DNA of 35,451 nucleotides from a virus (Duplodnaviria; Heunggongvirae; Uroviricota; Caudoviricetes). The position numbers and the translations under genes were made by a program. The stretch is from positions 1-35,451 of the IMG/VR virus record IMGVR_UViG_2695420367_000003; one strand, 5' to 3'. The notes below the pieces were generated by a model, which was not told the origin of the DNA, ran no database searches, and saw nothing but the letters and a program-made list of their open reading frames with translations. Of the stretch, positions 17,795 through 29,308 are shown in pieces. The first letter of the stretch is position 1. The number at the start of each line of letters is the position of its first letter.

Positions 17795-17849
17795 CCTTAC
17801 CCTTCATCACTAAAGGCCGCCTGTGCGGCTTTTTTTACGGGATTTTTTT

Positions 17850-18125
17850 ATGTCGATGTACACAACCGCCCAGCTGCTGGCGGCAAATGAGCAGAAATTT
17901 AAGTTTGATCCGCTGTTTCTGCGTCTCTTTTTCCGTGAGAGCTATCCCTTCACCACGGAGAAAGTCTATCTCTCACAAATTCCGGGACTGGTAAACATGG
18001 CGCTGTACGTTTCGCCGATTGTTTCCGGTGAGGTTATCCGCTCCCGTGGCGGCTCCACCTCTGAATTTACGCCGGGATATGTCAAACCCAAGCACTTAGC
18101 ATGGCTTTCTGAGGCTTTCGTGTAG
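17850..18125 (+). pseudogene. E: Major capsid protein E, 5' portion only (codons 1 to about 82), interrupted by the satellite insertion
   Basis: MSMYTTAQLLAANEQKFKFDPLFLRLFF…SEFTPGYVKPKH matches the lambda gpE N-terminus, then diverges into 9 unrelated codons and a stop at the insertion junction. Confidence 0.9.
18085..18094. repeat. Left junction core (attL-like) AACCCAAGCA
   Basis: Identical 10-mer at 28518-28527; joining the flanks restores …GTCAAACCCAAGCATGAAGTG… (VKPKHEV of E). Confidence 0.75.
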
Positions 18126-18257
18126 TTGCTGGTTTTTACACTTAATCTTTTGATAATAAAGAATAAGTTTATCTGGCGCTTTCACTGGATTTTCCTCGTT
18201 ATCTGTGTGTTGCAATCATCTCTGTATTGCAGCTTGTATTGCTTTTTGGGGCTAAAA

Positions 18258-19493
18258 ATGGCTGGCGAGAACAAACTGAGCGACAAAGCACTTAAAGGAT
18301 ATCTGGGGAAACCCAGAGAAAAGCAGATCACCATTGCTGATGGAAAGGGGCTTTCTATTCGTGTGAGTACCAAGGGGGCTGTGAGCTTTGTTTTCTTCTA
18401 CAGGTTAGCAGGTGGCCGGGCTGCTCCGGTCTGGCTAACGTTGGGTAAATATCCTGATATGTCACTCAAACAGGCAAGGGAAAAGCGCGACGAGTGCCGT
18501 GGTTGGTTGGCTGACAAACGTGATCCGCGTATCCAGATTAAGATTCAGGCTGAAGAACGCTTAAAGCCGGTCACAGTGGAGGATGCACTAAATTACTGGT
18601 ATGAAAATTACTGTAAGGTGCGTCGTAAAACTCATGCTGTAACGCTTGGCAGATTTCGAAAGCATATCTTTCCCTATATCGGTCATTTGCCCGTAAATGA
18701 CACTCACCTATATGAATGGCTGGACTGTTTTGACCGAATTAAACGTAATGCACCAGTTATGGCGGCGTATGTTTTTTCTGACACTAAATTAGCTCTTCGT
18801 TTTTGTCGGGTACGCCAGTACGCGACGTGTGATGCTTTAAAGGATTTGCGCATGAGTGATGTGGGGCAGATTGCAGGTAAGCGGGATCGGGTTCTGGATG
18901 AAGCCGAACTGGGCCAGCTCTGGAAGGCAATTTTTGTCGAGCCTGATTTAAAACTAATGTCTGAATACACGCGAAAAATGTTTGTGCTTTGTACAGTATT
19001 TGGATGTCGAATGAGTGAAGCCCGATTATCAGAATGGAGCGAATGGGATCTCGAAAGTTGGGTTTGGACTGTACCAAAAGATCACTCAAAAACTGGTGTT
19101 GAAATCGTCAGACCAGTACCTGAAATTCTACGACAGTGGGTAACGGATGTTCACGAAGAGACAAAACATACTGGTTATGTGCTGGGAAGTCTGCGAATTA
19201 GAGAAAGCGTAAGCAAGATTGGGGGGAAAATCGGTAAACGTTTGGGCCATGAAAAACAATGGTCACTACACGACCTTAGAAGAACGCTTTCAACCCATCT
19301 GAGTGATTTGGGCGTTGAGTTTCATGTAGTGGAGCAGCTGTTAGGCCATGCGCTACCTGGCGTGGCAGGTGTTTACAACCGGAGTAAGTTTATGGCTAAA
19401 AAACTGGATGCTCTGGAACTCTGGACTACATATCTCAATAGCATCGCAGCTGCTGATTCAAAAGTGACAATCCTCAAACAAAAGGCTGGTTAA
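18258..19493 (+). CDS. int: Tyrosine integrase (P4-type, with N-terminal arm-binding domain)
   Basis: N-terminal …LSDKALKGYLGKPREKQITIADGKGLSIRVSTKGAVSFVFFYR…; catalytic-region motifs HDLRRT…LLGH…VYNRS; true ATG at 18258, the track start is upstream. Confidence 0.88.
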   Translation: MAGENKLSDKALKGYLGKPREKQITIADGKGLSIRVSTKGAVSFVFFYRLAGGRAAPVWLTLGKYPDMSLKQAREKRDECRGWLADKRDPRIQIKIQAEERLKPVTVEDALNYWYENYCKVRRKTHAVTLGRFRKHIFPYIGHLPVNDTHLYEWLDCFDRIKRNAPVMAAYVFSDTKLALRFCRVRQYATCDALKDLRMSDVGQIAGKRDRVLDEAELGQLWKAIFVEPDLKLMSEYTRKMFVLCTVFGCRMSEARLSEWSEWDLESWVWTVPKDHSKTGVEIVRPVPEILRQWVTDVHEETKHTGYVLGSLRIRESVSKIGGKIGKRLGHEKQWSLHDLRRTLSTHLSDLGVEFHVVEQLLGHALPGVAGVYNRSKFMAKKLDALELWTTYLNSIAAADSKVTILKQKAG

Positions 19494-19494
19494 C

Positions 19495-19728
19495 ATGAAA
19501 AAAATGGCAATTGTCGATAAAAAGGGTCTGGAGTACATTCCTAACATTGACCGTATGATCCGCGAAAAAGAATGCCGTGAGTTAACTACTCTTGCTAATA
19601 GCACTCGATGGAAGTTAGAGAAAGAAGGAAAGTTTCCAAAGCGTATTAAAATAGGTGCCACTGCCGTAGCATATCGCCTTTCGGAGGTGCAGGCGTGGAT
19701 TCGTGGGGAATGGTACTTAAATAAGTAA
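19495..19728 (+). CDS. alpA: AlpA-family HTH regulator/excisionase-like protein
   Basis: …ECRELTTLANSTRWKLEKEGKFPKRIKIGATAVAYRLSEVQAWI… fits the AlpA pattern; directly follows int. Confidence 0.8.
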   Translation: MKKMAIVDKKGLEYIPNIDRMIREKECRELTTLANSTRWKLEKEGKFPKRIKIGATAVAYRLSEVQAWIRGEWYLNK

Positions 19729-19736
19729 ATCATTTC

Positions 19737-19765
19737 AATTAGGTAGGTTTATTACCTACCTAATT
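19737..19765. terminator. Perfect palindrome AATTAGGTAGGT-TTATT-ACCTACCTAATT between convergent genes (bidirectional terminator candidate)
   Basis: Seen directly: 12-bp perfect inverted repeat with a 5-nt loop, between the alpA stop and the stop of the minus-strand 241-aa gene. Confidence 0.6.
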
Positions 19766-19768
19766 AAT

Positions 19769-20494
19769 TTAAATCATGTCTGCCTTATTTCCTAATTTTA
19801 TGGAGCAATCCTCTAAAAGATGCCCGATGAACTTATGAGTTCCAATAACATAATCTTGAAGCCTATATTCCATTCCTAATAATGACTTGTTCTCTTTGTC
19901 CTTGAAAAAAGGAAAAGAGGCAAGGTTTTCATCGACAATATAAAGGTGTTTGATTTTGTTGTTTAAAACCCTAGTTTCGTTAATGACATCGTAAGAATCA
20001 AGTTGGGAGAGGTCAATACCATAACTTAAGTATTTCTTTTTTAATTTATCCCATGTATATGGAACTTTAACTTGACTTTCAGGTATTTCTTTAATAATTG
20101 CTTCTAGCAAAGAGTATGCCATGGTACTAAACTGTTCAATAATAGCCCAAAGATTAATTACGACACTGTCATTGGCAAAAAATGAGGCTTTTCTATTAAG
20201 ATCATCATAATAACCAACCATCTCTCTATGTCTGGCTTGAGAAATCAAGGCCATTTCATGCACTTCATCGTCTAATAAGTCTGGATTATATTGGGGAGTG
20301 TTGTCTGCAATTTTTTGTATCTCCTTAAGATTTATGTTATATGTATGATAAACAAATGAGTGAAATACTATTAGATCTTCAAGTCGGAACGAAAATTTCC
20401 CAAGTAGAGACAGGAATCTACTATCATGAGGGAAATAATGTGGGATAGGATTGTCTGTTAAATTATATTCACTTATTCGTTTTAGATTTTGCAT
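19769..20494 (-). CDS. Hypothetical 241-aa protein, AT-rich cargo (function unknown)
   Basis: Long ORF, visibly AT-rich versus surrounding genes, co-oriented and 24 nt downstream of the RHH gene; no motif I recognise. Confidence 0.6.
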   Translation of the reverse strand: MQNLKRISEYNLTDNPIPHYFPHDSRFLSLLGKFSFRLEDLIVFHSFVYHTYNINLKEIQKIADNTPQYNPDLLDDEVHEMALISQARHREMVGYYDDLNRKASFFANDSVVINLWAIIEQFSTMAYSLLEAIIKEIPESQVKVPYTWDKLKKKYLSYGIDLSQLDSYDVINETRVLNNKIKHLYIVDENLASFPFFKDKENKSLLGMEYRLQDYVIGTHKFIGHLLEDCSIKLGNKADMI

Positions 20495-20518
20495 CTCTCA
20501 CAGATCCTTTTAAAAGTC

Positions 20519-20713
20519 TTAACCTCTAGGTTCAATACCTTGTTTGCGTAGTTCTGCTCTTGCTAGTTCTTTAAGCCAATTAGCCAAACTCATTCCTTCT
20601 TTTGCAGCCGCACTAACCATTTGTTCTTTTAGTTCCGGGTGGATACGGATCTGAAATGCCGGTGCCTTACCAGCACCTTTCGGCTGTTTATCGCGCTGAA
20701 TGATAGTTGACAT
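20519..20713 (-). CDS. Ribbon-helix-helix (CopG/Arc-like) DNA-binding protein; candidate repressor or antitoxin
   Basis: 64 aa; …FQIRIHPELKEQMVSAAAKEGMSLANWLKELARAEL… is typical of RHH proteins; first gene of a leftward operon diverging from the replication module. Confidence 0.65.
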   Translation of the reverse strand: MSTIIQRDKQPKGAGKAPAFQIRIHPELKEQMVSAAAKEGMSLANWLKELARAELRKQGIEPRG

Positions 20714-20716
20714 GTA

Positions 20717-20817
20717 TGTACCTATTGCTTAGTATGCTTCTTGATAGGTACACACCTTATCATGTTTTATTACTCTGTAACAACGCCCTGCAGTGCTCGC
20801 AACACATACAGGGCGTT
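20717..20817. promoter_or_regulatory. Divergent control region with two 9-bp inverted repeats, each with an 18-bp spacer
   Basis: TGTACCTAT…ATAGGTACA (20717-20752) and AACGCCCTG…CAGGGCGTT (20782-20817), between the divergent RHH gene and the 20853 ORF. Confidence 0.5.
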
Positions 20818-20852
20818 TAACCACCAACGATAGCAACAGTATCGAGGTAGCT

Positions 20853-21056
20853 ATGAGAAATCATACCACACACCCGCAAGGGCGGGACCCGCACAACCTG
20901 AATAAATACATCTGGCGTTTTATCGCCCTGAGTACGGCACAACCGCGCGTGATTACCATCGAGGCCACCAGCGAACAGGAAGCCCGCCAGCAATCCCCAA
21001 CTGGCTGCGTGATGATATTCGCCGCCCGTATTCGTCAGGAGGTGTGCCATGAATGA
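20853..21056 (+). CDS. Hypothetical small protein (67 aa)
   Basis: GAGGTAG RBS before the ATG; first gene of the rightward operon leading to the primase. Confidence 0.5.
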   Translation: MRNHTTHPQGRDPHNLNKYIWRFIALSTAQPRVITIEATSEQEARQQSPTGCVMIFAARIRQEVCHE

Positions 21057-21273
21057 TCTTTATTTGAAAGTGCTGACACATGCTGAAAACGCGCTCGTTT
21101 GTGGCAAAAATATGCGAGAAATCTTATCAACCTGGCTTGATGGGACAACAAATGCGGAACACGATGAACGGGATGCTAATTTAGCTGGAGCGTTAATTAC
21201 GTTACTTGATCCTGTCATCAAAGAGCTGGATGAAGCTATAAAAATACACGACCAGAGCTATACCGGAGAATAA
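21049..21273 (+). CDS. Hypothetical small protein (74 aa)
   Basis: AGGAGGTG RBS; start overlaps the upstream ORF stop. Confidence 0.5.
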   Translation: MNDLYLKVLTHAENALVCGKNMREILSTWLDGTTNAEHDERDANLAGALITLLDPVIKELDEAIKIHDQSYTGE

Positions 21274-21276
21274 AAA

Positions 21277-21564
21277 ATGAAAAATAAATTTTCTGGCTTT
21301 ATTGCCAGCGGTCAAACTCATTCAAAAATCAGCCTTGGGGATATTTTCAAAGACAGCTATGGCTATCGGGTAAAGATTATTTCGGTTGATGATCGTCGTG
21401 TCTCTTATTTGCGTGATGGTTATGATTTTGAATGTGTTATGCCGCGTCAGCAGTTCGAAAGAGATTTCATTCTGGTAAAAAATTGCAAGACAGATAATCA
21501 GAGGCGTGCCGCAGGCTATATCCGTAAAATTCGGGCAATGTTAGTTGCCGGAGGTAACAAATGA
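21277..21564 (+). CDS. Hypothetical small protein (95 aa)
   Basis: GGAGAA RBS; stop overlaps the primase start. Confidence 0.5.
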   Translation: MKNKFSGFIASGQTHSKISLGDIFKDSYGYRVKIISVDDRRVSYLRDGYDFECVMPRQQFERDFILVKNCKTDNQRRAAGYIRKIRAMLVAGGNK

Positions 21565-23381
21565 AACGTGCTCCGAACTTAAAATACCAACCGCGCGACA
21601 AAATGACGGAAGTCATCATTTTTGCTGGCAGTGATGCCTGGAGCCATGCAAAAGAATGGAATGAATGGGCAGGTAAGCATATTGCAGCAGATGATACACC
21701 ACCAGTCATTCTGGGTACAGAACAACTGGAAAACCTGGATGATATGCAAATTATCGATGAAGGCCGTCATTATGTGCGTGTTTATCGTGCTGGAAAGATT
21801 GCAGAGAAAAGTCTGACGAAGGTTGCGACATTACTTGCTATTGCAGGCGTAAAGGAAGCACGTTGTTACCGTAGCTTTGTTGATCGAGAGCCTGAAGACT
21901 GGACTCCGCGCCTTGTCGGCCTAAAAGCTGAAGCGGAGCATGGGGAAAGTCTGGTGATTGAACTGCCAGTGAAGAAGGCAGAGCGCAAAAATGACGAGCG
22001 TGCTTCATCTTTGGCGTTGAATCAGATGGGGGCCAGCCAGCGCGGTGAAGTTCTCCTTGCACATTACGGCGGCGAACTGGCAATCAATGCCGACTCTGAC
22101 ACCGTTCATCATTACAACGGCGTTGTATGGGAGCCGGTTCAGGATAAAGAGTTACAGCGTGCTATGGCGCAGATTTTCATTGATGCGGAGATCAGCTATT
22201 CGCAGAACGCTATTAAATCGGCGGTAGATACCATGAAGTTAAGTTTGCCTGTAATGGGGAATACAGCCCGTAACCTGATTGGATTCAGTAACGGGGTATT
22301 TGATACCAGAACTGGTAATTTTCGGGAGCATAACAAAAACGACTGGTTGTTAATTGCCAGTGAATTACCTTTCAGCCCACCAGCAGAGGGGGAAACGCTG
22401 GCAACACATGCGCCGAATTTCTGGAAGTGGTTGCGCCGTTCGGTGGCTGAGAATGACCGCAAGGCAGATCGCGTACTGGCGGCATTATTCATGGTGCTGG
22501 CGAACCGGTACGACTGGCAGTTATTCATTGAGGTAACAGGGCCGGGGGGAAGTGGTAAAAGTGTGATGGCGGAGATTTGCACCATGCTGGCGGGTAAGGC
22601 GAATACAGTATCAGCAAGCATGAAGGCGCTGGAAGATGCAAGGGAACGTGCGTTAGTGGTTGGCTTTTCGCTGATTATCATGCCGGATATGACCCGCTAC
22701 GCTGGTGATGGGGCAGGGATTAAGGCCATTACAGGCGGTGACAAGGTGGCAATTGACCCGAAACACAAAGCCCCCTATTCAACGCGTATTCCGGCAGTAG
22801 TGCTGGCGGTTAACAATAACGCCATGTCATTCAGTGACCGCAGCGGGGGGATCTCACGTCGTCGGGTGATATTCAATTTTTCGGAAGTTGTACCGGAGAA
22901 CGAACGCGATTCGATGCTGGCGGAAAAAATAGAAGGTGAGCTGGCGGTAGTGATTCGTCATCTGCTTACACGGTTTGCTGATCAGGACGAAGCCAGACGC
23001 CTGTTATATGAGCAGCAGAAATCTGAAGAAGCACTGGCGATAAAGCGAGAGGGGGATTCGCTGGTGGACTTCTGCGGCTATCTCATGGCATCGGTAATGT
23101 GTGATGGCCTGTTAGTGGGTAATGCTGAAATTGTGCCATTCAGCCCACGCAGGTATCTCTATCATGCCTATCTGGCTTATATGAGGGCACATGGGTTTGG
23201 TAAACCTGTAACACTGACGCGCTTCGGTAAAGATATGCCGGGGGCAATGGCGGAATATGGCAGGGAGTATATGAAACGGAAAACGAAGCACGGTTTGCGT
23301 TCAAACGTGACACTGACGGAGGAATCAGAAGACTGGATGCCATCATGTGTATCGGTCACTAATGACGATAGCAAAAATTAA
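21561..23381 (+). CDS. Phage/plasmid primase-helicase (P4-alpha-like domain with SF3 helicase Walker A GPGGSGKS)
   Basis: 606 aa; Walker A and downstream helicase-like motifs; immediately followed by the iteron array. Confidence 0.85.
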   Translation: MKRAPNLKYQPRDKMTEVIIFAGSDAWSHAKEWNEWAGKHIAADDTPPVILGTEQLENLDDMQIIDEGRHYVRVYRAGKIAEKSLTKVATLLAIAGVKEARCYRSFVDREPEDWTPRLVGLKAEAEHGESLVIELPVKKAERKNDERASSLALNQMGASQRGEVLLAHYGGELAINADSDTVHHYNGVVWEPVQDKELQRAMAQIFIDAEISYSQNAIKSAVDTMKLSLPVMGNTARNLIGFSNGVFDTRTGNFREHNKNDWLLIASELPFSPPAEGETLATHAPNFWKWLRRSVAENDRKADRVLAALFMVLANRYDWQLFIEVTGPGGSGKSVMAEICTMLAGKANTVSASMKALEDARERALVVGFSLIIMPDMTRYAGDGAGIKAITGGDKVAIDPKHKAPYSTRIPAVVLAVNNNAMSFSDRSGGISRRRVIFNFSEVVPENERDSMLAEKIEGELAVVIRHLLTRFADQDEARRLLYEQQKSEEALAIKREGDSLVDFCGYLMASVMCDGLLVGNAEIVPFSPRRYLYHAYLAYMRAHGFGKPVTLTRFGKDMPGAMAEYGREYMKRKTKHGLRSNVTLTEESEDWMPSCVSVTNDDSKN

Positions 23382-23394
23382 ACTTATGGAATAA

Positions 23395-23620
23395 CTGTTC
23401 ACCACTGTTCACCCTGTCATAAATATCTTTTATATCAGTATATTATAGGGTGAACAGTTATTTATGAACTGTTCACCAAACTATTCACTGTTCACCTTTT
23501 TGATTGTTTATTGAGCTTCAAGGGTGAACAGTGGTGAACAGTTGGTGAATAGTTTTTGTGAAACTGTTCACCCATTAACATTATGAATTAAAAGAGAAAA
23601 TATCAAAAGGTGAACAGGTG
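23395..23620. repeat. Satellite replication origin: at least 10 copies of the iteron GGTGAACAG/CTGTTCACC in both orientations
   Basis: Seen directly: the motif recurs at about 23396, 23406, 23449, 23469, 23489, 23524, 23534, 23545 (variant), 23565 and 23610 within an AT-rich stretch downstream of the primase. Confidence 0.8.
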
Positions 23621-23668
23621 AAGGGTTAAAACGCAAAAATTTTAATTTACTGCTGTGAGATAAAGCCT

Positions 23669-23914
23669 ATGACAGCGAAGCACACAAAAAAATCACAATC
23701 GCACGCCCTTGATTTGACGGAACACTGGTTAAGGGTGTCGATAAAAATCATCGACCGCAACGCCGGGGAAGGATACGCGAAAGCACATCCCGAACTGATT
23801 AGCGCATTCATGACAACGGCGGCTGCAAACTTTGCCACTCTGACCGAACGGGAGATTGCTGAAGCGGAGGAAGTGACAACAATCAATATTAAGTCCGGAG
23901 AGCAGGCAGCATGA
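23669..23914 (+). CDS. Hypothetical protein (81 aa)
   Basis: ORF overlapping the SSB-like gene start; no recognisable motif. Confidence 0.45.
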   Translation: MTAKHTKKSQSHALDLTEHWLRVSIKIIDRNAGEGYAKAHPELISAFMTTAAANFATLTEREIAEAEEVTTINIKSGEQAA

Positions 23915-24360
23915 TGGCGCAAATATCAGTTTACGGGCGGTTGGTGGACGACCCGCAGACAAAACAGACCAGCAAGGGCACCCCCATGACGCTGGCGCGT
24001 ATGGCGGTATCAATGCCCTGCAGTCAGTCGGATGACGGTCAGGCGACGATGTGGTTATCTGTCCTGGCGTTTGGCAGACAAGCCGACGCACTGGCAAAGC
24101 ATCACAAAGGCGAACTCCTGAGCGTGGCGGGTAACATGCAGATGAGCCAGTGGACTGGACAGAACGGCGAAACGCGGCAGGGCTGGCAGGTTATCGCAGA
24201 CAGCGTAATCAGTGCGCGATCGGTGCGACCGGGCGGCAAAAAAGGCCAACAGGGGCAGGCTACTGACGAACTGAACAGAGCAAAACAACAGGCAGATCAG
24301 CAAGGAAGCCAGCCACCAGTGGGAGATAATGAGCAATGGGGAGATGATATCCCGTTTTAA
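23911..24360 (+). CDS. SSB-like single-stranded DNA-binding protein with C-terminal acidic DDIPF tail
   Basis: OB-fold-like N-terminal region parallels E. coli SSB; Gly/Gln-rich linker; C-terminal …EQWGDDIPF. Confidence 0.7.
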   Translation: MMAQISVYGRLVDDPQTKQTSKGTPMTLARMAVSMPCSQSDDGQATMWLSVLAFGRQADALAKHHKGELLSVAGNMQMSQWTGQNGETRQGWQVIADSVISARSVRPGGKKGQQGQATDELNRAKQQADQQGSQPPVGDNEQWGDDIPF

Positions 24361-24375
24361 ATATTGCCAATAAAA

Positions 24376-24401
24376 AAGGCCGGAAAAAATAAATTTTCCG
24401 G
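24376..24401. terminator. Hairpin GCCGGAAAA-AATAAA-TTTTCCGGC downstream of the SSB-like gene
   Basis: Perfect inverted repeat with A-rich and T-rich arms; a possible terminator or attenuator before the capsid genes. Confidence 0.4.
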
Positions 24402-24576
24402 CATGCTACATAAATCCCGACCAAAGGGAGTGAAGATATTAACACTAATTGTCCGCACTGAAGTTGTCACCCCAAAACTTTATACAACATTGCACTCGGT
24501 TGCATGTGTTCGCATGACAAATATCGGTGGTAGCATATATCCACAATTATTTTTAATGAATGCAAAGAGGATGCGT

Positions 24577-25617
24577 ATGGTTGATTTATATTCGCCTACT
24601 CAGCTTGTACAGGTGGTTAATGCTGTAGATGTACAAAAACAACTAAATGCGTTGTTTACCAGTTTGTTTTTTACTCGCTCGGTAATGTTTGAATCGCGCG
24701 ATATTATTCTTGATACAATCGACGATCCAAATATCCCAATTGCAGCGTTTTGTTCTCCTATGGTGGGTAGTAAAGTTTCACGTGACGAAGGGTACGAATC
24801 AAAAACAATTCGTCCAGGCTATATGAAGCCGAAAAGCAGCATTGATCCAAATAAGTTAGCTGTGCGCCCTGCTGGTGTATCACCTGAGCAATACAATGCT
24901 TTTGGGGCACGTAATATTAAAGTTAAACAGGCGATTGTAAATCAAGCTAAAGCTATTCGTGCACGTATTGAATGGCTTGCTGTTCAGGCAATCACAACGG
25001 GGAAAAATATCATTGAGGGCGATGGTATTGAACGTTATGAGCTGGACTGGAATATTAAACCACAAAATATCATCACTCAGTCTGGCGGTGCTGAGTGGTC
25101 AGGTAAGGATAAAGAAACTTTTGATCCAAATGATGATATTGAGAGCTACGCAGAATTTAGTGAGGGCGTCACTAATATTATCATTATGGGCGGTAATGTA
25201 TGGAAGAAATACCGTTCATTCAGAGCGATAAAAGAGGCTCTGGATACCCGTCGTGGTTCTAATTCCGAACTGGAAACGGCCCTTAAAGACCTTGGTGATT
25301 CGGTGAGTTTTAAAGGGTATATGGGCGATGTTGCGATTGTTGTATACAGCGGGCGTTATACCGACGAGGACGGAACTGAAAAACATTTCCTTGATCCTGA
25401 TTTGATGGTGCTTGGCAATACGGCTCTTCAGGGGATTGTCGCCTATGGCGGTATTCAGGATCCGGAGCTAATCCGAATGGGGCTGACTAAAGCCGAACTT
25501 GCACCGAAAAACTATATTGTGCCTGGTGATCCGGCTATTGAATATGTGCAGACACATTCAGCACCACAGCCAATACCGGCCCGCATCAATCGTTTTGTTA
25601 CCGTTCGCATTGGCTAA
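24577..25617 (+). CDS. Satellite-encoded major capsid protein, diverged homolog of lambda gpE
   Basis: C-terminal 180 aa align to lambda E (…SGGAEWSGKDKETFDPNDDIESYA…LDTRRGSNSELETALKDLG…GDVAIVVYSG…); N-terminal half diverged but collinear (RPGYMKPKS vs TPGYVKPKH); GAGG RBS 6 nt before the ATG at 24577. Confidence 0.85.
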   Translation: MVDLYSPTQLVQVVNAVDVQKQLNALFTSLFFTRSVMFESRDIILDTIDDPNIPIAAFCSPMVGSKVSRDEGYESKTIRPGYMKPKSSIDPNKLAVRPAGVSPEQYNAFGARNIKVKQAIVNQAKAIRARIEWLAVQAITTGKNIIEGDGIERYELDWNIKPQNIITQSGGAEWSGKDKETFDPNDDIESYAEFSEGVTNIIIMGGNVWKKYRSFRAIKEALDTRRGSNSELETALKDLGDSVSFKGYMGDVAIVVYSGRYTDEDGTEKHFLDPDLMVLGNTALQGIVAYGGIQDPELIRMGLTKAELAPKNYIVPGDPAIEYVQTHSAPQPIPARINRFVTVRIG

Positions 25618-25626
25618 GGGGGAGCA

Positions 25627-25968
25627 ATGGCTACTCATTACACTGAACTCATGGCTGGCACTGAAGCACTGGTGACTACACTGGGGATATTTTCAGCTAA
25701 TAAAGGGGTAATTCATGCATTTACGCCACTGATGCAGGAAGATGCAACAGGTGCACTGGTGGTATGGGATGGTTCGAGCGTAGGTAAAGCGGTTTATGTT
25801 TCCGCTGTACAAATCGACACCGCGAAAAAAACACAGGCTCAGGTCTATAAGACAGGTGTCTTAAATGTTGATGCTCTGAACTGGCCTGAGTCTGTTAAAG
25901 AACTGTCAGTAAAGGTTGCAGCGTTTGTTGGCTCAGGTATTTCTGTTCAGCCGCTGGCTCGTGTGTAA
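25627..25968 (+). CDS. Satellite-encoded head decoration protein, diverged homolog of lambda gpD
   Basis: 113 aa; shares the spaced pattern TPLM…WDG…G…Q.YK.G…WPE…AF.G..ISV with lambda D (copy at 17462-17794). Confidence 0.65.
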   Translation: MATHYTELMAGTEALVTTLGIFSANKGVIHAFTPLMQEDATGALVVWDGSSVGKAVYVSAVQIDTAKKTQAQVYKTGVLNVDALNWPESVKELSVKVAAFVGSGISVQPLARV

Positions 25969-25979
25969 AGGGGGATACA

Positions 25980-26363
25980 ATGCAGAATGATTACAATGAC
26001 CTTAAGCCAATTGCCGAAATGATGTACCCGAATCAAGCTGTAGAGGAATTAAAAGCTATCGCTGACAAAATGTGTTTAAGCGAGCGCCTTGTTGATATGA
26101 ATCAGGTGATGGAAATTACAACCCTGAGTCGTCGTACACTGCTAAACCTTGAGGCTAGTGGAGAGTTCCCGGAGCGTGTGCAGGTTACGGAAGGGCGTAA
26201 GGCCTGGTATTTAAGTGAAGTGATCGACTGGATAAATAATATTCCTCGCGCTTCTGAATATTGCCGCGTACCTGTCCCAAAAAAGCCAGATGCGGCGCTA
26301 TGCCTCAAGATTGAGCGTGTACGCCGCAATGCACGGGATGGTCGCTATAAGCTGATTGGTTGA
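25980..26363 (+). CDS. HTH DNA-binding protein (AlpA/MerR-like motif) adjacent to satellite cos
   Basis: …MEITTLSRRTLLNLEASGEFPERVQVTEGRKAWYLSEVIDWI… helix-turn-helix; last gene before cos. Confidence 0.6.
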   Translation: MQNDYNDLKPIAEMMYPNQAVEELKAIADKMCLSERLVDMNQVMEITTLSRRTLLNLEASGEFPERVQVTEGRKAWYLSEVIDWINNIPRASEYCRVPVPKKPDAALCLKIERVRRNARDGRYKLIG

Positions 26364-26413
26364 TGAAGTTAGGGCCCGCTCTGGCTGGCGGGTCCTTTCC
26401 GGCGATCCAGAAC

Positions 26414-26600
26414 GTTACGGGGCGTCAGGCGCGCAGATTCTTGCTATTTATGACAATTTTCTGCGATTTGCCGTTTCCGTTCTTCTTCCTCGTAACTTAG
26501 TGTTTTTACTAGAAATACCCTCTTAAAAGAAAGGAAATGACAGGTGCTGAAAACAGGCTTTTGGGTCTCCGTCATTTCCTTTCTCATTTTTATCTAAAAG
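26414..26600 (+). promoter_or_regulatory. cos: Satellite cos site (cosN-like 12-mer at about 26420-26431 plus cosB-like R and IHF elements), no terminase gene attached
   Basis: About 190 bp closely similar to the helper cos region (…CGTTTCCGTTCTTCTTC…AAAAGAAAGGAAA.GACAG.TGCTGAAAAC.GGCTTTT…TTTCCTTTCTC…); not followed by Nu1. Confidence 0.8.
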
Positions 26601-26815
26601 TAAGCATCGAGGCCACCCCAAATGCTTATAGAGGTTATTGTGTCACTATGCGTACTGTTCAGGATTTAAAGTAGCAAGACATCTAGTTGCTTGCAGTTTT
26701 GGCGAATGATGTGAGGTTCTCTATAACAGATAATGTAACAAGTTACTGATATATTCTGTTATGGTTGACTTTAAATTCTGTTGCTCCTTCAATGAATTAT
26801 TGAGGGGTGAAAATT

Positions 26816-26841
26816 AGGCGTGATAAGAATCGATCACGCCT
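26816..26841. terminator. Hairpin AGGCGTGAT-AAGAATCG-ATCACGCCT just beyond the 3' end of the minus-strand cargo gene
   Basis: Perfect 9-bp stem; T-rich on the plus side and A-rich on the minus side. Confidence 0.5.
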
Positions 26842-26846
26842 ATTGT

Positions 26847-28163
26847 TTATCTTGAAGAAATTTTAGGCAGGCTTTTTAAAAATAAATCTTTATTTCTACT
26901 TGCATCAGTTAAAAGTGTTAGGAATATTTTATCTGTAGGAGTGCATGTGCTCTTGTTTAACAGTAATTCACCAAGTTTCTGTAATCGAGAGAATTGCCCA
27001 TCCTCTTGGATTCTGTGACGAAGTGTACTATCATTTTTAATAACATCAACAAATGCAGAAACCATGTTAATATCAAAGTATTCAAACATTTCCAATATTA
27101 AAGGTGCAGCCCCATTTGAATAAAAATTCTTCCTTCCATACTGATAGCTGAAACCACGATGGCCAACATAAGTTTTTGTAATGGCTGAAACAAATTCAAC
27201 AATATTATCTTCAGGGACGAAACTCGAGAATGGTAATAATTGGGTTACGATTTTTTCCTCTTCTGACCAATTATCTAAAGACTCGGTGAGTTTATTAATG
27301 AGAGGCTCAATAATAACTTTTCGGGATGCAGGGCTAATATACATCAGTCCATCTACCAATAGTATGAATTGTTGTGCCTTCTCTATCTTATTGTTGTTTC
27401 CTGAAACTAAATACTTGTCAAATTGTTGGCCGACTTTACGTCGGTCGTCTTTTGAAAGTAATGTCCATAAAATAGGTGCGCAAAATTCAATGTTGTTTCT
27501 GAGTTCACTTGATATATTGGATGAGCAGTATGTGCCAAAAAAACGAGAGGATAATTCACTGATATAAATTGCAGGTAGATCTGAAAAGGCTTGCTTAACT
27601 GCCAGACTATTTTTATTAAATGTTGCCGAATCCATTTCTGAAAGATATGTAGATATATCTATGATGGCTGGTGGAAACTCTTTAGAAAGAACGTATTTAT
27701 TACAATCATTAATCAGGTTCACTACTTTGATTAAATCAGGGTCGCTACTTTGTGGATGTCCACCAAATAGATTCCTGGTTTCTCTAGCTTGTTGTAATAG
27801 TTTCTGACCTTCTCGATCGATAACTCCTATTTTAAATGCTCCATCTATTAAATCAAAGTCGCTCACATAATCCTGAAAATCTTCATACGTTTTAATTTCT
27901 TTTTTTTGTTTACACTCTTTGTTGAATAGATCTAGGCTACGATGAATTATCTTTTGACGTAAATCATCAACTACAGCATTCCAGTAAGCAGTGATGGCAC
28001 TTCTATAACCTTTTACAGGAAGAACTCTTATTGCTTCTGAAATATATGGGCAGTCAACTACATCATGCCTCACAGTTGAGAGCGCAGTTTGTAACAATGT
28101 AACTTCTGTAGAGTCTAGTGGAGTTGGCTGCACTAAATGAGAACTTATCTCTGTACCCTTCAT
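26847..28163 (-). CDS. Hypothetical 438-aa protein, AT-rich cargo (function unknown; candidate accessory or defence gene)
   Basis: Long uninterrupted ORF, visibly AT-rich, between satellite cos and the right junction; no motif I recognise. Confidence 0.6.
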   Translation of the reverse strand: MKGTEISSHLVQPTPLDSTEVTLLQTALSTVRHDVVDCPYISEAIRVLPVKGYRSAITAYWNAVVDDLRQKIIHRSLDLFNKECKQKKEIKTYEDFQDYVSDFDLIDGAFKIGVIDREGQKLLQQARETRNLFGGHPQSSDPDLIKVVNLINDCNKYVLSKEFPPAIIDISTYLSEMDSATFNKNSLAVKQAFSDLPAIYISELSSRFFGTYCSSNISSELRNNIEFCAPILWTLLSKDDRRKVGQQFDKYLVSGNNNKIEKAQQFILLVDGLMYISPASRKVIIEPLINKLTESLDNWSEEEKIVTQLLPFSSFVPEDNIVEFVSAITKTYVGHRGFSYQYGRKNFYSNGAAPLILEMFEYFDINMVSAFVDVIKNDSTLRHRIQEDGQFSRLQKLGELLLNKSTCTPTDKIFLTLLTDASRNKDLFLKSLPKISSR

Positions 28164-28517
28164 TTCAGGATTTTCCTATTCTTTTCCATTTTTCTACTCT
28201 ATTGAATTTGAAAAAGATATCAAGTTCGTTCTTGCCAGTTTTAAGTGGAAAAATTGATGTTACCTTATTGAGATAAGGCAGTTCTCTATAACCTATTGTT
28301 ATTAATTATTTTTATTTTTTTTCCAATTCAGATGTTTAGGGCTAAGAAGTTAAGTGAGAGTTCACAGCAAAACTGCTTCTAGTTCCTCACCGAGGAGCAA
28401 AAGGTTAAGACAGCGTACTTTGTATTGCACAATGTATTGCAGAACCTTCTTTCGAAAGCTACAACAATCAATTTTATATTGAAAATTCAATCATATCCTT
28501 TCGATATTGACTCATAT

Positions 28518-28527
28518 AACCCAAGCA
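28518..28527. repeat. Right junction core (attR-like) AACCCAAGCA
   Basis: Identical to 18085-18094; the downstream sequence continues in the E reading frame. Confidence 0.75.
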
Positions 28528-29308
28528 TGAAGTGAATCCGCAGATGACCCTGCGTCGCCTGCCGGATGAAGATCCGCAGAATCTGGCGGACCCGGCTTAC
28601 CGTCGCCGTCGCATCATCATGCAGAACATGCGTGACGAAGAGCTGGCCATTGCCCAGGTGGAAGAGATGCAGGCAGTTTCTGCCGTGCTTAAGGGCAAAT
28701 ACACCATGACCGGTGAAGCCTTCGATCCGGTTGAGGTGGATATGGGTCGCAGTGCGGCGAATAACATCACGCAGTCCGGCGGCACGGAGTGGAGTAAGCG
28801 TGATAAGTCCACGTATGACCCGACCGACGATATCGAAGCCTACGCGCTGAACGCCAGCGGTGTGGTGAATATCATCGTGTTTGATCCGAAAGGCTGGGCG
28901 CTGTTCCGTTCCTTCAAAGCCGTCAGGGAGAAGCTGGATACCCGTCGCGGCTCTCATTCCGAACTGGAGACAGCGGTAAAAGACCTGGGCAAAGCGGTGT
29001 CTTATAAGGGAATGTATGGCGATGTGGCCATCGTCGTGTATTCCGGACAGTACGTGGAAAATGGTGTCAAAAAGAACTTCCTGCCGGACAACACGATGGT
29101 GCTGGGCAACACTCAGGCACGCGGTCTGCGCACCTATGGCTGCATTCAGGATGCGGACGCACAGCGCGAAGGCATTAACGCCTCTGCCCGTTACCCGAAA
29201 AACTGGGTGACCACCGGCGATCCGGCGCGTGAGTTCACCATGATTCAGTCAGCACCGCTGATGCTGCTGGCTGACCCTGATGAGTTCGTGTCCGTACAAC
29301 TGGCGTAA
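28520..29308 (+). pseudogene. E: Major capsid protein E, 3' portion (codons about 80 to 341), separated from its 5' portion by the satellite
   Basis: …KHEVNPQMTLRRLPDEDPQNLADPAYRRRRIIMQNMRDEELAIAQ… to the C-terminus …DPDEFVSVQLA matches lambda gpE; no own start codon or RBS. Confidence 0.9.

Follow-up and report, generated by a model that had tools for sequence, protein, structure and literature searches.

The 35,451-bp stretch of viral DNA in IMG/VR record IMGVR_UViG_2695420367_000003 (hereafter the window) carries a dense array of short repeats at 23395-23620. Judged by comparison with known replicons, this array is very probably the P4-type replication origin (oriV) of a PICI (phage-inducible chromosomal island), a satellite that sits inside the prophage of its helper. 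An earlier sequence-only reading had called it the satellite origin. That view is supported by a repeat shared with phage P4, by an alpha-type origin-binding domain in the initiator protein encoded next to it, by a layout found in many genera, by joint switching of the repeat and the putative wing of that domain, and by a homologue in the PICI EcCICFT073. An origin of this kind would give the satellite a replication specificity independent of its helper.

The repeat unit, or iteron, GGTGAACAG/CTGTTCACC has nine exact copies on the two strands of the window, all inside 23395-23617 (223 bp). For GGTGAACAG the expectation over the whole window is 0.21, and 0/100 shuffles reached nine. On the plus strand, five copies read CTGTTCACC (23395, 23405, 23469, 23488 and 23564) and four read GGTGAACAG (23449, 23523, 23533 and 23609). 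The array also holds one copy with a single mismatch, GGTGAATAG at 23544, and two weaker degenerate copies, CTATTCACT at 23481 and GGTGAAGGG at 23617, at positions where relatives have good copies. Matches with one mismatch number 28 across the window against 7.3 expected; the excess comes mainly from 10 in the array, and the remaining 18 are scattered singly outside it.

The sequence-only reading had described at least ten copies of a 9-bp motif, in both orientations, within about 225 bp of AT-rich DNA that starts 14 bp after a stop codon. The copy number is right because the nine exact and three degenerate copies give 10 to 12 sites, and the base composition agrees, with a GC fraction of 0.33-0.35 over 23300-23699, while the genes on either side have about 0.50-0.55. 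That reading would have fallen had the motif been as dense elsewhere in the window, and all 9/9 exact copies lie in the array. Two details needed correction. The array does adjoin the upstream open reading frame (ORF) at 21561-23381, but the gap between its stop codon (TAA, 23379-23381) and the first copy is 13 nt. The motif is indeed repeated, but what is conserved is the octamer TGTTCACC; the ninth base (the C of CTGTTCACC) is specific to the window, and most relatives have GTGTTCACC. The octamer occurs as nine exact copies and one with a single mismatch, in both orientations, within 23396-23616, and elsewhere in the 35 kb as four isolated copies within prophage or chromosomal genes. Neither a DnaA box nor GATC is present in the array, no Rfam RNA family was found anywhere in the window, and a literature search with the bare octamer returned only primer noise.

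The sites are arranged as an inverted pair of modules resembling the P4 origin (ori) rather than as a loose scatter. With '>' standing for TGTTCACC, their order is >> - 35-bp AT spacer - < - >>> - 26-bp centre - <<< - > - 36-bp AT spacer - <(<). Counted from the first site, the offsets are 0, 10, 53, 74, 86 and 93 in the left module and 127, 137, 148, 169 and 213 in the right one. Each of the two mutually inverted modules is about 125 bp long and is built from three iterons, one inverted iteron, an AT spacer of about 35 bp, and one or two further iterons. The module halves form an imperfect inverted repeat, in which the I1 arms of 54 nt are 74% complementary and the I2 arms of 36 nt 83%. Both AT spacers fall within the least stable 1% of the 25-mers in the window.

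The left module opens with a doublet (23395-23413, plus strand), in which exact copies of CTGTTCACC at 23395 and 23405 are spaced 10 bp apart. The AT-rich spacer that follows (23414-23448) is the first candidate DNA-unwinding element: 25-mers starting at 23413-23431 belong to the least stable 1%, with a minimum of -22.3 against a window mean of -33.9 kcal/mol. Within it, at 23433-23445, lies a match to WATCARNNNNTTR, the consensus pattern for integration host factor (IHF). Next come a single inverted iteron, GGTGAACAG (23449-23457, minus strand), and the inner triplet (23469-23496, plus strand), made of CTGTTCACC at 23469, the degenerate CTATTCACT at 23481, and CTGTTCACC at 23488. In relatives these three sites read GTGTTCACC, GTATTCACC and TGTTCACC.

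A central spacer of 26 bp (23497-23522), flanked by I1 and I2 and poorly conserved among relatives, marks the centre of the palindrome between the modules. Beyond it, the right module has an inner triplet (23523-23552, minus strand) of GGTGAACAG at 23523 and 23533 and GGTGAATAG at 23544, spaced 10 and 11 bp apart, then a single inverted iteron CTGTTCACC (23564-23572, plus strand). The second candidate DNA-unwinding element is the AT-rich spacer at 23573-23608, whose 25-mers with starts at 23573-23586 likewise rank in the least stable 1%. The outer iterons (23609-23625, minus strand) are GGTGAACAG at 23609 and the overlapping degenerate GGTGAAGGG at 23617; in relatives this part of the module reads GGTGAACAGGTGAACAC. 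Directly after the last iteron stands an A/T-rich box, TTAAAACGCAAAAATTTTAATTTAC (23626-23650), whose form across genera is AAACG(C/T)ATATTTTTTAATTTTAT.

The closest counterpart of these modules is found in phage P4. In the P4 record (NC_001609) the identical octamer TGTTCACC carries the annotation 'ori type 1 repeat'. Six of its copies stand at ori and another ten at crr, which lies directly downstream of alpha and is labelled 'cis required region for replication'. The alpha protein presumably binds these iterons, as the GenBank annotation has it. Both window modules match the layout of the P4 ori core to within 1-3 bp: the right module has offsets 0/10/21/42/86 against 0/10/21/43/86/96 in P4, and the left one 0/10/53/74/86/93 against 0/10/53/75/86/96 in the reverse complement of P4 ori. 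The correspondence extends to single parts. The left doublet answers to P4 ori 9396/9406 read as the reverse complement, and the left inverted iteron has the same offset of 53. The right triplet has the spacing of the P4 ori triplet 9310/9320/9331 and aligns with it in register, the right inverted iteron is the counterpart of P4 9353 (offset 42 versus 43), the right AT spacer aligns with the P4 ori AT spacer 9361-9395, and the outer iterons have their equivalents at 9396/9406.

In sequence, all five modules, two from the window and three from P4 (the ori core and the pair of crr units), can be aligned as a single unit of about 125 nt. Local alignments of the window modules with P4 score 90-93 against 23-24 for shuffled sequences, and the modules are 69% and 61% identical to the P4 ori core and 46-57% identical to the crr units. 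Because offsets, alignment and identities all match P4 ori, the array is best described as an inverted pair of P4-ori-like modules at the place that crr takes in P4. A division into a crr-like left module and an ori-like right module was considered and rejected, as both are nearer the ori core than crr.

The two systems also differ. In P4 the origin is bipartite, with some 4.7 kb between its single ori module and a direct pair of crr modules; the window has two inverted ori-like modules 26 bp apart in a single cluster, and no parts kilobases from each other. A terminator separates alpha from crr in P4, whereas none was detected around the array (23200-23800). Its Cnr has no homologue in the window element, where neither the DUF4222 protein nor an 81-aa ORF showed similarity to it. 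Finally, P4 is a satellite dependent on P2, whereas the window element depends on a lambdoid phage.

The gene upstream of the array (21561-23381, plus strand) encodes the presumed initiator, a protein of 606 aa with matches to D5_N, DUF5906 and Pox_D5. It comprises a Toprim-like N-terminal domain (residues 1 to about 135), D5_N and superfamily 3 (SF3) helicase regions (149-497), and a winged-helix origin-binding domain (498-594; nt 23052-23342). Residues 149-596 are 51% identical to residues 323-771 of P4 alpha over 449 aa, and residues 498-594 match the structure of the P4 origin-binding domain (PDB 1KA8, E=1.9e-24), which makes helicase and C-terminal domain homologous in the two proteins. 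The last 30 or so residues of this domain (aa 568-596, EYMKRKTKHGLRSNVTL...; codons at 23262-23348, plus strand) should form the DNA-contacting wing hairpin, by analogy with other winged-helix domains (PMC2777425).

The sequence-only reading had called this gene a primase. Its helicase and origin-binding parts are indeed like P4 alpha, but the label is not secure because only these parts resemble alpha and the N-terminal 148 aa are unrelated to it in sequence. Alpha has an N-terminal primase region of 322 aa, of DnaG type, which by sequence is absent from the initiator: no similarity between the N-terminal 148 aa and the alpha primase domain was found by sequence or profile, and Pfam and NCBIfam gave no match for the domain. 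The match to a Toprim-like fold is weak, and the acidic residues usual in Toprim are not obvious by eye in the invariant motifs FAGSDAW and RxYxAG. Database relatives carry this N-terminal domain in front of helicases of at least 3 different types.

Evidence that array and C-terminal domain belong together can be found in related elements. A scan of one genome per species gave 80 loci with initiator homologues of 56-88% identity. In about 66/80 of them TGTTCACC occurs within 450 bp after the stop codon, and it is almost absent from flanks of about 6.9 kb; the genera include Klebsiella, Raoultella, Pectobacterium, Xenorhabdus, Photorhabdus and others. Among 12 aligned origins of the TGTTCACC type, conservation is 0.935 in iteron columns versus 0.762 in spacer columns (Mann-Whitney p=2e-10). 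The inverted two-module layout also stands behind homologues of P4 length (804-841 aa) in Xenorhabdus and Photorhabdus, and the split arrangement of P4 is therefore the exception. The seven loci L077-L083 (Pantoea, Erwinia, Ewingella and Rahnella), which have P4-length alpha homologues of 56% identity, show no recognisable array within 450 bp downstream; their origins therefore lie elsewhere or use a motif that escaped detection.

In some relatives the layout is retained with another iteron. The TGTCTACC type, TGTCTAC(C), is found in Escherichia ruysiae, Kluyvera, Enterobacter and Lelliottia, TCTCCACC in Rahnella, CTGTCCGC in Serratia and CTATACAC in Oceanisphaera. These variants of specificity (loci L012, L013, L015, L020, L017, L019 and L074) lie in the roughly 300 bp after the initiator stop codon. 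Three of them, the TGTCTACC-type L012, L013 and L015, encode initiators that are 88-92% identical to that of the window in the helicase and 81-85% identical in aa 498-567, but just 31% identical in aa 568-596, where they also have a 5-residue insertion. The same segment is 65-75% identical in relatives of the TGTTCACC type, and 55% identical in P4, which is above the identity of the P4 helicase. In these comparisons the switches of iteron coincide with replacement of the putative wing segment alone. Recombination within the domain would seem to account for such a replacement in a protein otherwise about 90% identical. Of the in-silico evidence, this joint change of iteron and segment argues most strongly for the array as the cognate binding site of the C-terminal domain.

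A homologous origin that has been validated experimentally belongs to EcCICFT073, the model Gram-negative PICI (Fillol-Salom et al. 2018), whose origin has also been used conditionally (Brodel et al. 2022). A pri-ori segment of this element maintains a temperature-sensitive plasmid only with pri and ori both intact (PMC6092414), and the origin works as a conditional replicon with the primase supplied in trans (10.1101/2022.09.30.509847). Origins of Gram-negative PICIs are described as sets of iterons around AT-rich DNA directly downstream of pri (PMC6092414, Fig. 2 legend), and the window array, 13 nt past the stop codon and with iterons on either side of its two AT spacers (35 and 36 bp), has this form. 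The iteron sequences themselves do not appear in the supplements of PMC6092414.

Homology of the two origins is indicated by synteny, layout and 44% overall identity of the initiators. The gene order DUF4222, pri, array (in EcCICFT073 within a 290-bp gap), small ORF, ssb, capsid and decoration is shared, as is the architecture of Pri including its N-terminal domain, and the EcCICFT073 array has the layout >> AT < >>> ... << ... <<. Differences exist as well. The EcCICFT073 iteron is CTGTCTACC, of the TGTCTACC type, as opposed to CTGTTCACC in the window; the helicase and origin-binding domain are just 35-46% identical to those of the window; the right-hand spacer is GC-rich; and the element is integrated in the chromosome and not inside a helper.

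The function of the array can be pictured in several steps. On the model of its homologue P4 alpha, the 21561-23381 protein would bind the 10-12 iterons through its C-terminal winged-helix domain and so become concentrated there, and its SF3 helicase ring would assemble. One or both AT spacers would then melt, the satellite single-stranded DNA-binding protein (SSB; 23911-24360) would coat the exposed strands and stabilise the bubble, and host DNA polymerase III would copy the element. Because the iteron sequence tracks the last 30 or so residues of the winged helix, origin and initiator would constitute a private matched pair. Transcription probably reads through the origin, since there is no terminator between gene and array.

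The general principle is known from other replicons. In the origins of Staphylococcus aureus pathogenicity islands (SaPIs), in the lambda ori with its O protein, and in plasmids with Rep and iterons, repeats that bind the initiator flank an AT-rich melting region beside the initiator gene. Such iteron origins give element-specific replication. The families of the initiators and the iteron sequences are different, and the likeness is one of function, with no claim of homology. A parallel with SaPI origins has also been drawn for Gram-negative PICIs (PMC6092414).

Several points weigh against the array being an autonomous P4-type origin. The assignment of origin function in this window is itself an argument from homology. 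P4 replication needs ori and crr as two separate loci, and the sufficiency of a single cluster is known only for the TGTCTACC-type EcCICFT073, whose initiator is 44% identical. The initiator has no recognisable P4-type primase domain, which bears on the priming step. In Eco567.11capE, an element likened to the present one by its type, the ratio of attP to attB after excision was about 1 in 2/3 induction experiments (PMC10111431); from these ratios, autonomous replication in vivo may be weak. Nor is the putative wing a simple one-to-one code for the iteron: EcCICFT073 and L012 share TGTCTACC and differ in the segment, and a strict code of this kind was rejected.

The need of P4 for two loci also lends some substance to another explanation, namely that the array is only a cis enhancer like crr, or a site of copy control ('handcuffing'), and that initiation takes place elsewhere, for example inside the initiator gene. 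An internal origin of this kind is known in P4 as oriII. The array does lie where crr lies in P4, immediately downstream of the alpha gene, and the P4 crr units align with its modules. This explanation is nevertheless improbable. No second cluster of TGTTCACC is present in the element or the window, the modules share more identity with the P4 ori core (61-69%) than with the crr units (46-57%), and in CFT073 the intergenic region is the sole cis element of the conditional replicon (PMC6092414; 10.1101/2022.09.30.509847).

It is less probable still that the repeats are mainly a transcriptional operator, acting on the orf81-ssb-capsid genes or on read-through from the initiator's own transcription, with no role in replication. 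Between the initiator gene and the co-oriented genes downstream there is only one sizeable intergenic gap, which the array fills, and a conserved A/T box follows the last iteron, as would suit an operator. However, neither a sigma-70 promoter consensus nor an intrinsic terminator could be detected in 23200-23800, the A/T-rich box at 23626-23650 included. The layout is that of a known origin, and the domain that would bind the repeats is of the origin-binding kind and joined to a helicase. Regulation and origin function can, moreover, coexist.

A role of the array in packaging, as a cos/pac site recognised by a terminase small subunit, has a negligible probability. In its favour, a packaging signal is indispensable to a satellite of a lambdoid phage, and some relatives of the element encode a small terminase subunit. 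Against it, neither the array nor its surroundings contain a lambda cosN-like sequence, and the motif is the iteron of P4 replication and tracks the helicase's putative wing and not any terminase. The array is also conserved where the late genes are quite different, as in vB_KppS-Ant.

The preferred reading of the array as a P4-type origin has a further, doubtful extension, in which it compactly unites two cis elements that lie 4.7 kb from each other in P4, and in which P4 alpha and the PICI initiator fire or titrate each other's origins. One locus could do the job of two because its ori-like modules face each other as crr and ori do in P4. Mutual firing or titration may occur because the iterons are identical and the putative wing (55%) is more P4-like than the rest of the protein. 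If this were true, satellites dependent on P2 and on lambdoid phages would be linked in replication, by cross-activation or incompatibility. Firing within a still-integrated element could likewise amplify the surrounding late genes of the helper.

Much of the setting is already published: both iteron origins downstream of pri, a hallmark of Gram-negative PICIs, and the type of the element have been described. The literature apparently does not spell out the iteron identical to that of P4, the inverted P4-ori-like pair, and the swaps of the final segment that go with iteron switches. These are modest additions, which leave the current understanding of satellite replication unchanged. The array itself marks where replication is controlled in cis in a satellite that is very common in E. 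coli: the origin region is present in 594/5,426 complete genomes of this species. The comparison also places PICI and P4 replicons in one homologous family of origins and initiators, despite an earlier stress on their independence, and the natural swaps of a putative wing of about 30 residues offer a ready-made map of iteron specificity. Orthogonal pairs (TGTTCACC, TGTCTACC, TCTCCACC, CTGTCCGC and CTATACAC) are of practical value because such pairs already serve as conditional replicons for phage-delivered payloads.

The window as a whole is a lambda-like prophage of E. coli, with terminase, portal, protease and decoration genes upstream and the FI to H tail genes downstream. The host element of the array, at 18085-28527 (plus strand), is a helper-embedded PICI of about 10.4 kb in the lambda-E-like major capsid gene of this lambdoid prophage, and not a P4-like satellite. 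Positions 1-78 of the Phage_cap_E profile match 17823-18125 and positions 94-328 match 28532-29308. A 10-bp att core, AACCCAAGCA, stands at both junctions (18085-18094 and 28518-28527), and joining the junctions restores the capsid reading frame (...KPKH|EVNPQ...). The annotation of a relative shows the same split capsid gene.

The element is of a published type, the helper-embedded PICI at site E:Phage_cap_E:80 (PMC10111431). Eco567.11capE and other PICIs of this site (Tommasini, Mageeney and Williams 2023), likened here by published type, are similarly about 10-11 kb long and co-oriented inside a lambda-E-like capsid gene. The paper on helper-embedded PICIs does not dissect the origin, and its authors note that the elements have a primase and origin of their own (PMC10111431).

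The co-oriented order int, alpA, regulatory zone, pri, ori, ssb and late genes follows the four-zone scheme of PICIs (PMC10111431). The integrase ORF (18126-19493) is followed by AlpA (19495-19728), and the gene content also includes an Icd-like gene and DUF4222. After the origin, 23669-24360 (plus strand) holds the 81-aa ORF, which matches phrog_1231, and the satellite SSB gene (23911-24360; Pfam SSB E=4.5e-17). The satellite capsid (24364-25617) and decoration (25627-25968) genes come next, and a second helix-turn-helix gene of the AlpA family, of 127 aa (25980-26363), stands at the end of the late zone.

Just inside each end of the element, the repeat TGTATTGCA(G) occurs twice (18223-18243 and 28420-28442); these copies are probably arm-type binding sites of the integrase.

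Another relative with the same type of initiator is L003 (LR881103.1, 'Escherichia phage vB_KppS-Ant', 16.5 kb), which has terminase, portal, capsid and integrase genes and lacks tail genes save for one ORF annotated as a tape-measure protein. The last 126 or so residues of its initiator are 81% identical, and the site map of its TGTTCACC origin equals that of the Klebsiella locus L008. Although deposited as a phage, the record has the look of a capsid-forming satellite of PICI type instead.

Two variable slots in the window element, at 26847-28163 and 19769-20494, are both on the minus strand, opposite to the other genes. A 438-aa slot protein matches phrog_27609 only and has no Pfam match, and PADLOC found nothing in the two slot proteins. 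The slots look like a defence-gene hotspot because in close relatives of the element TIR-domain, restriction endonuclease, abortive-infection, DUF262 or DUF2971 genes are found, apparently in place of the variable genes of the window.
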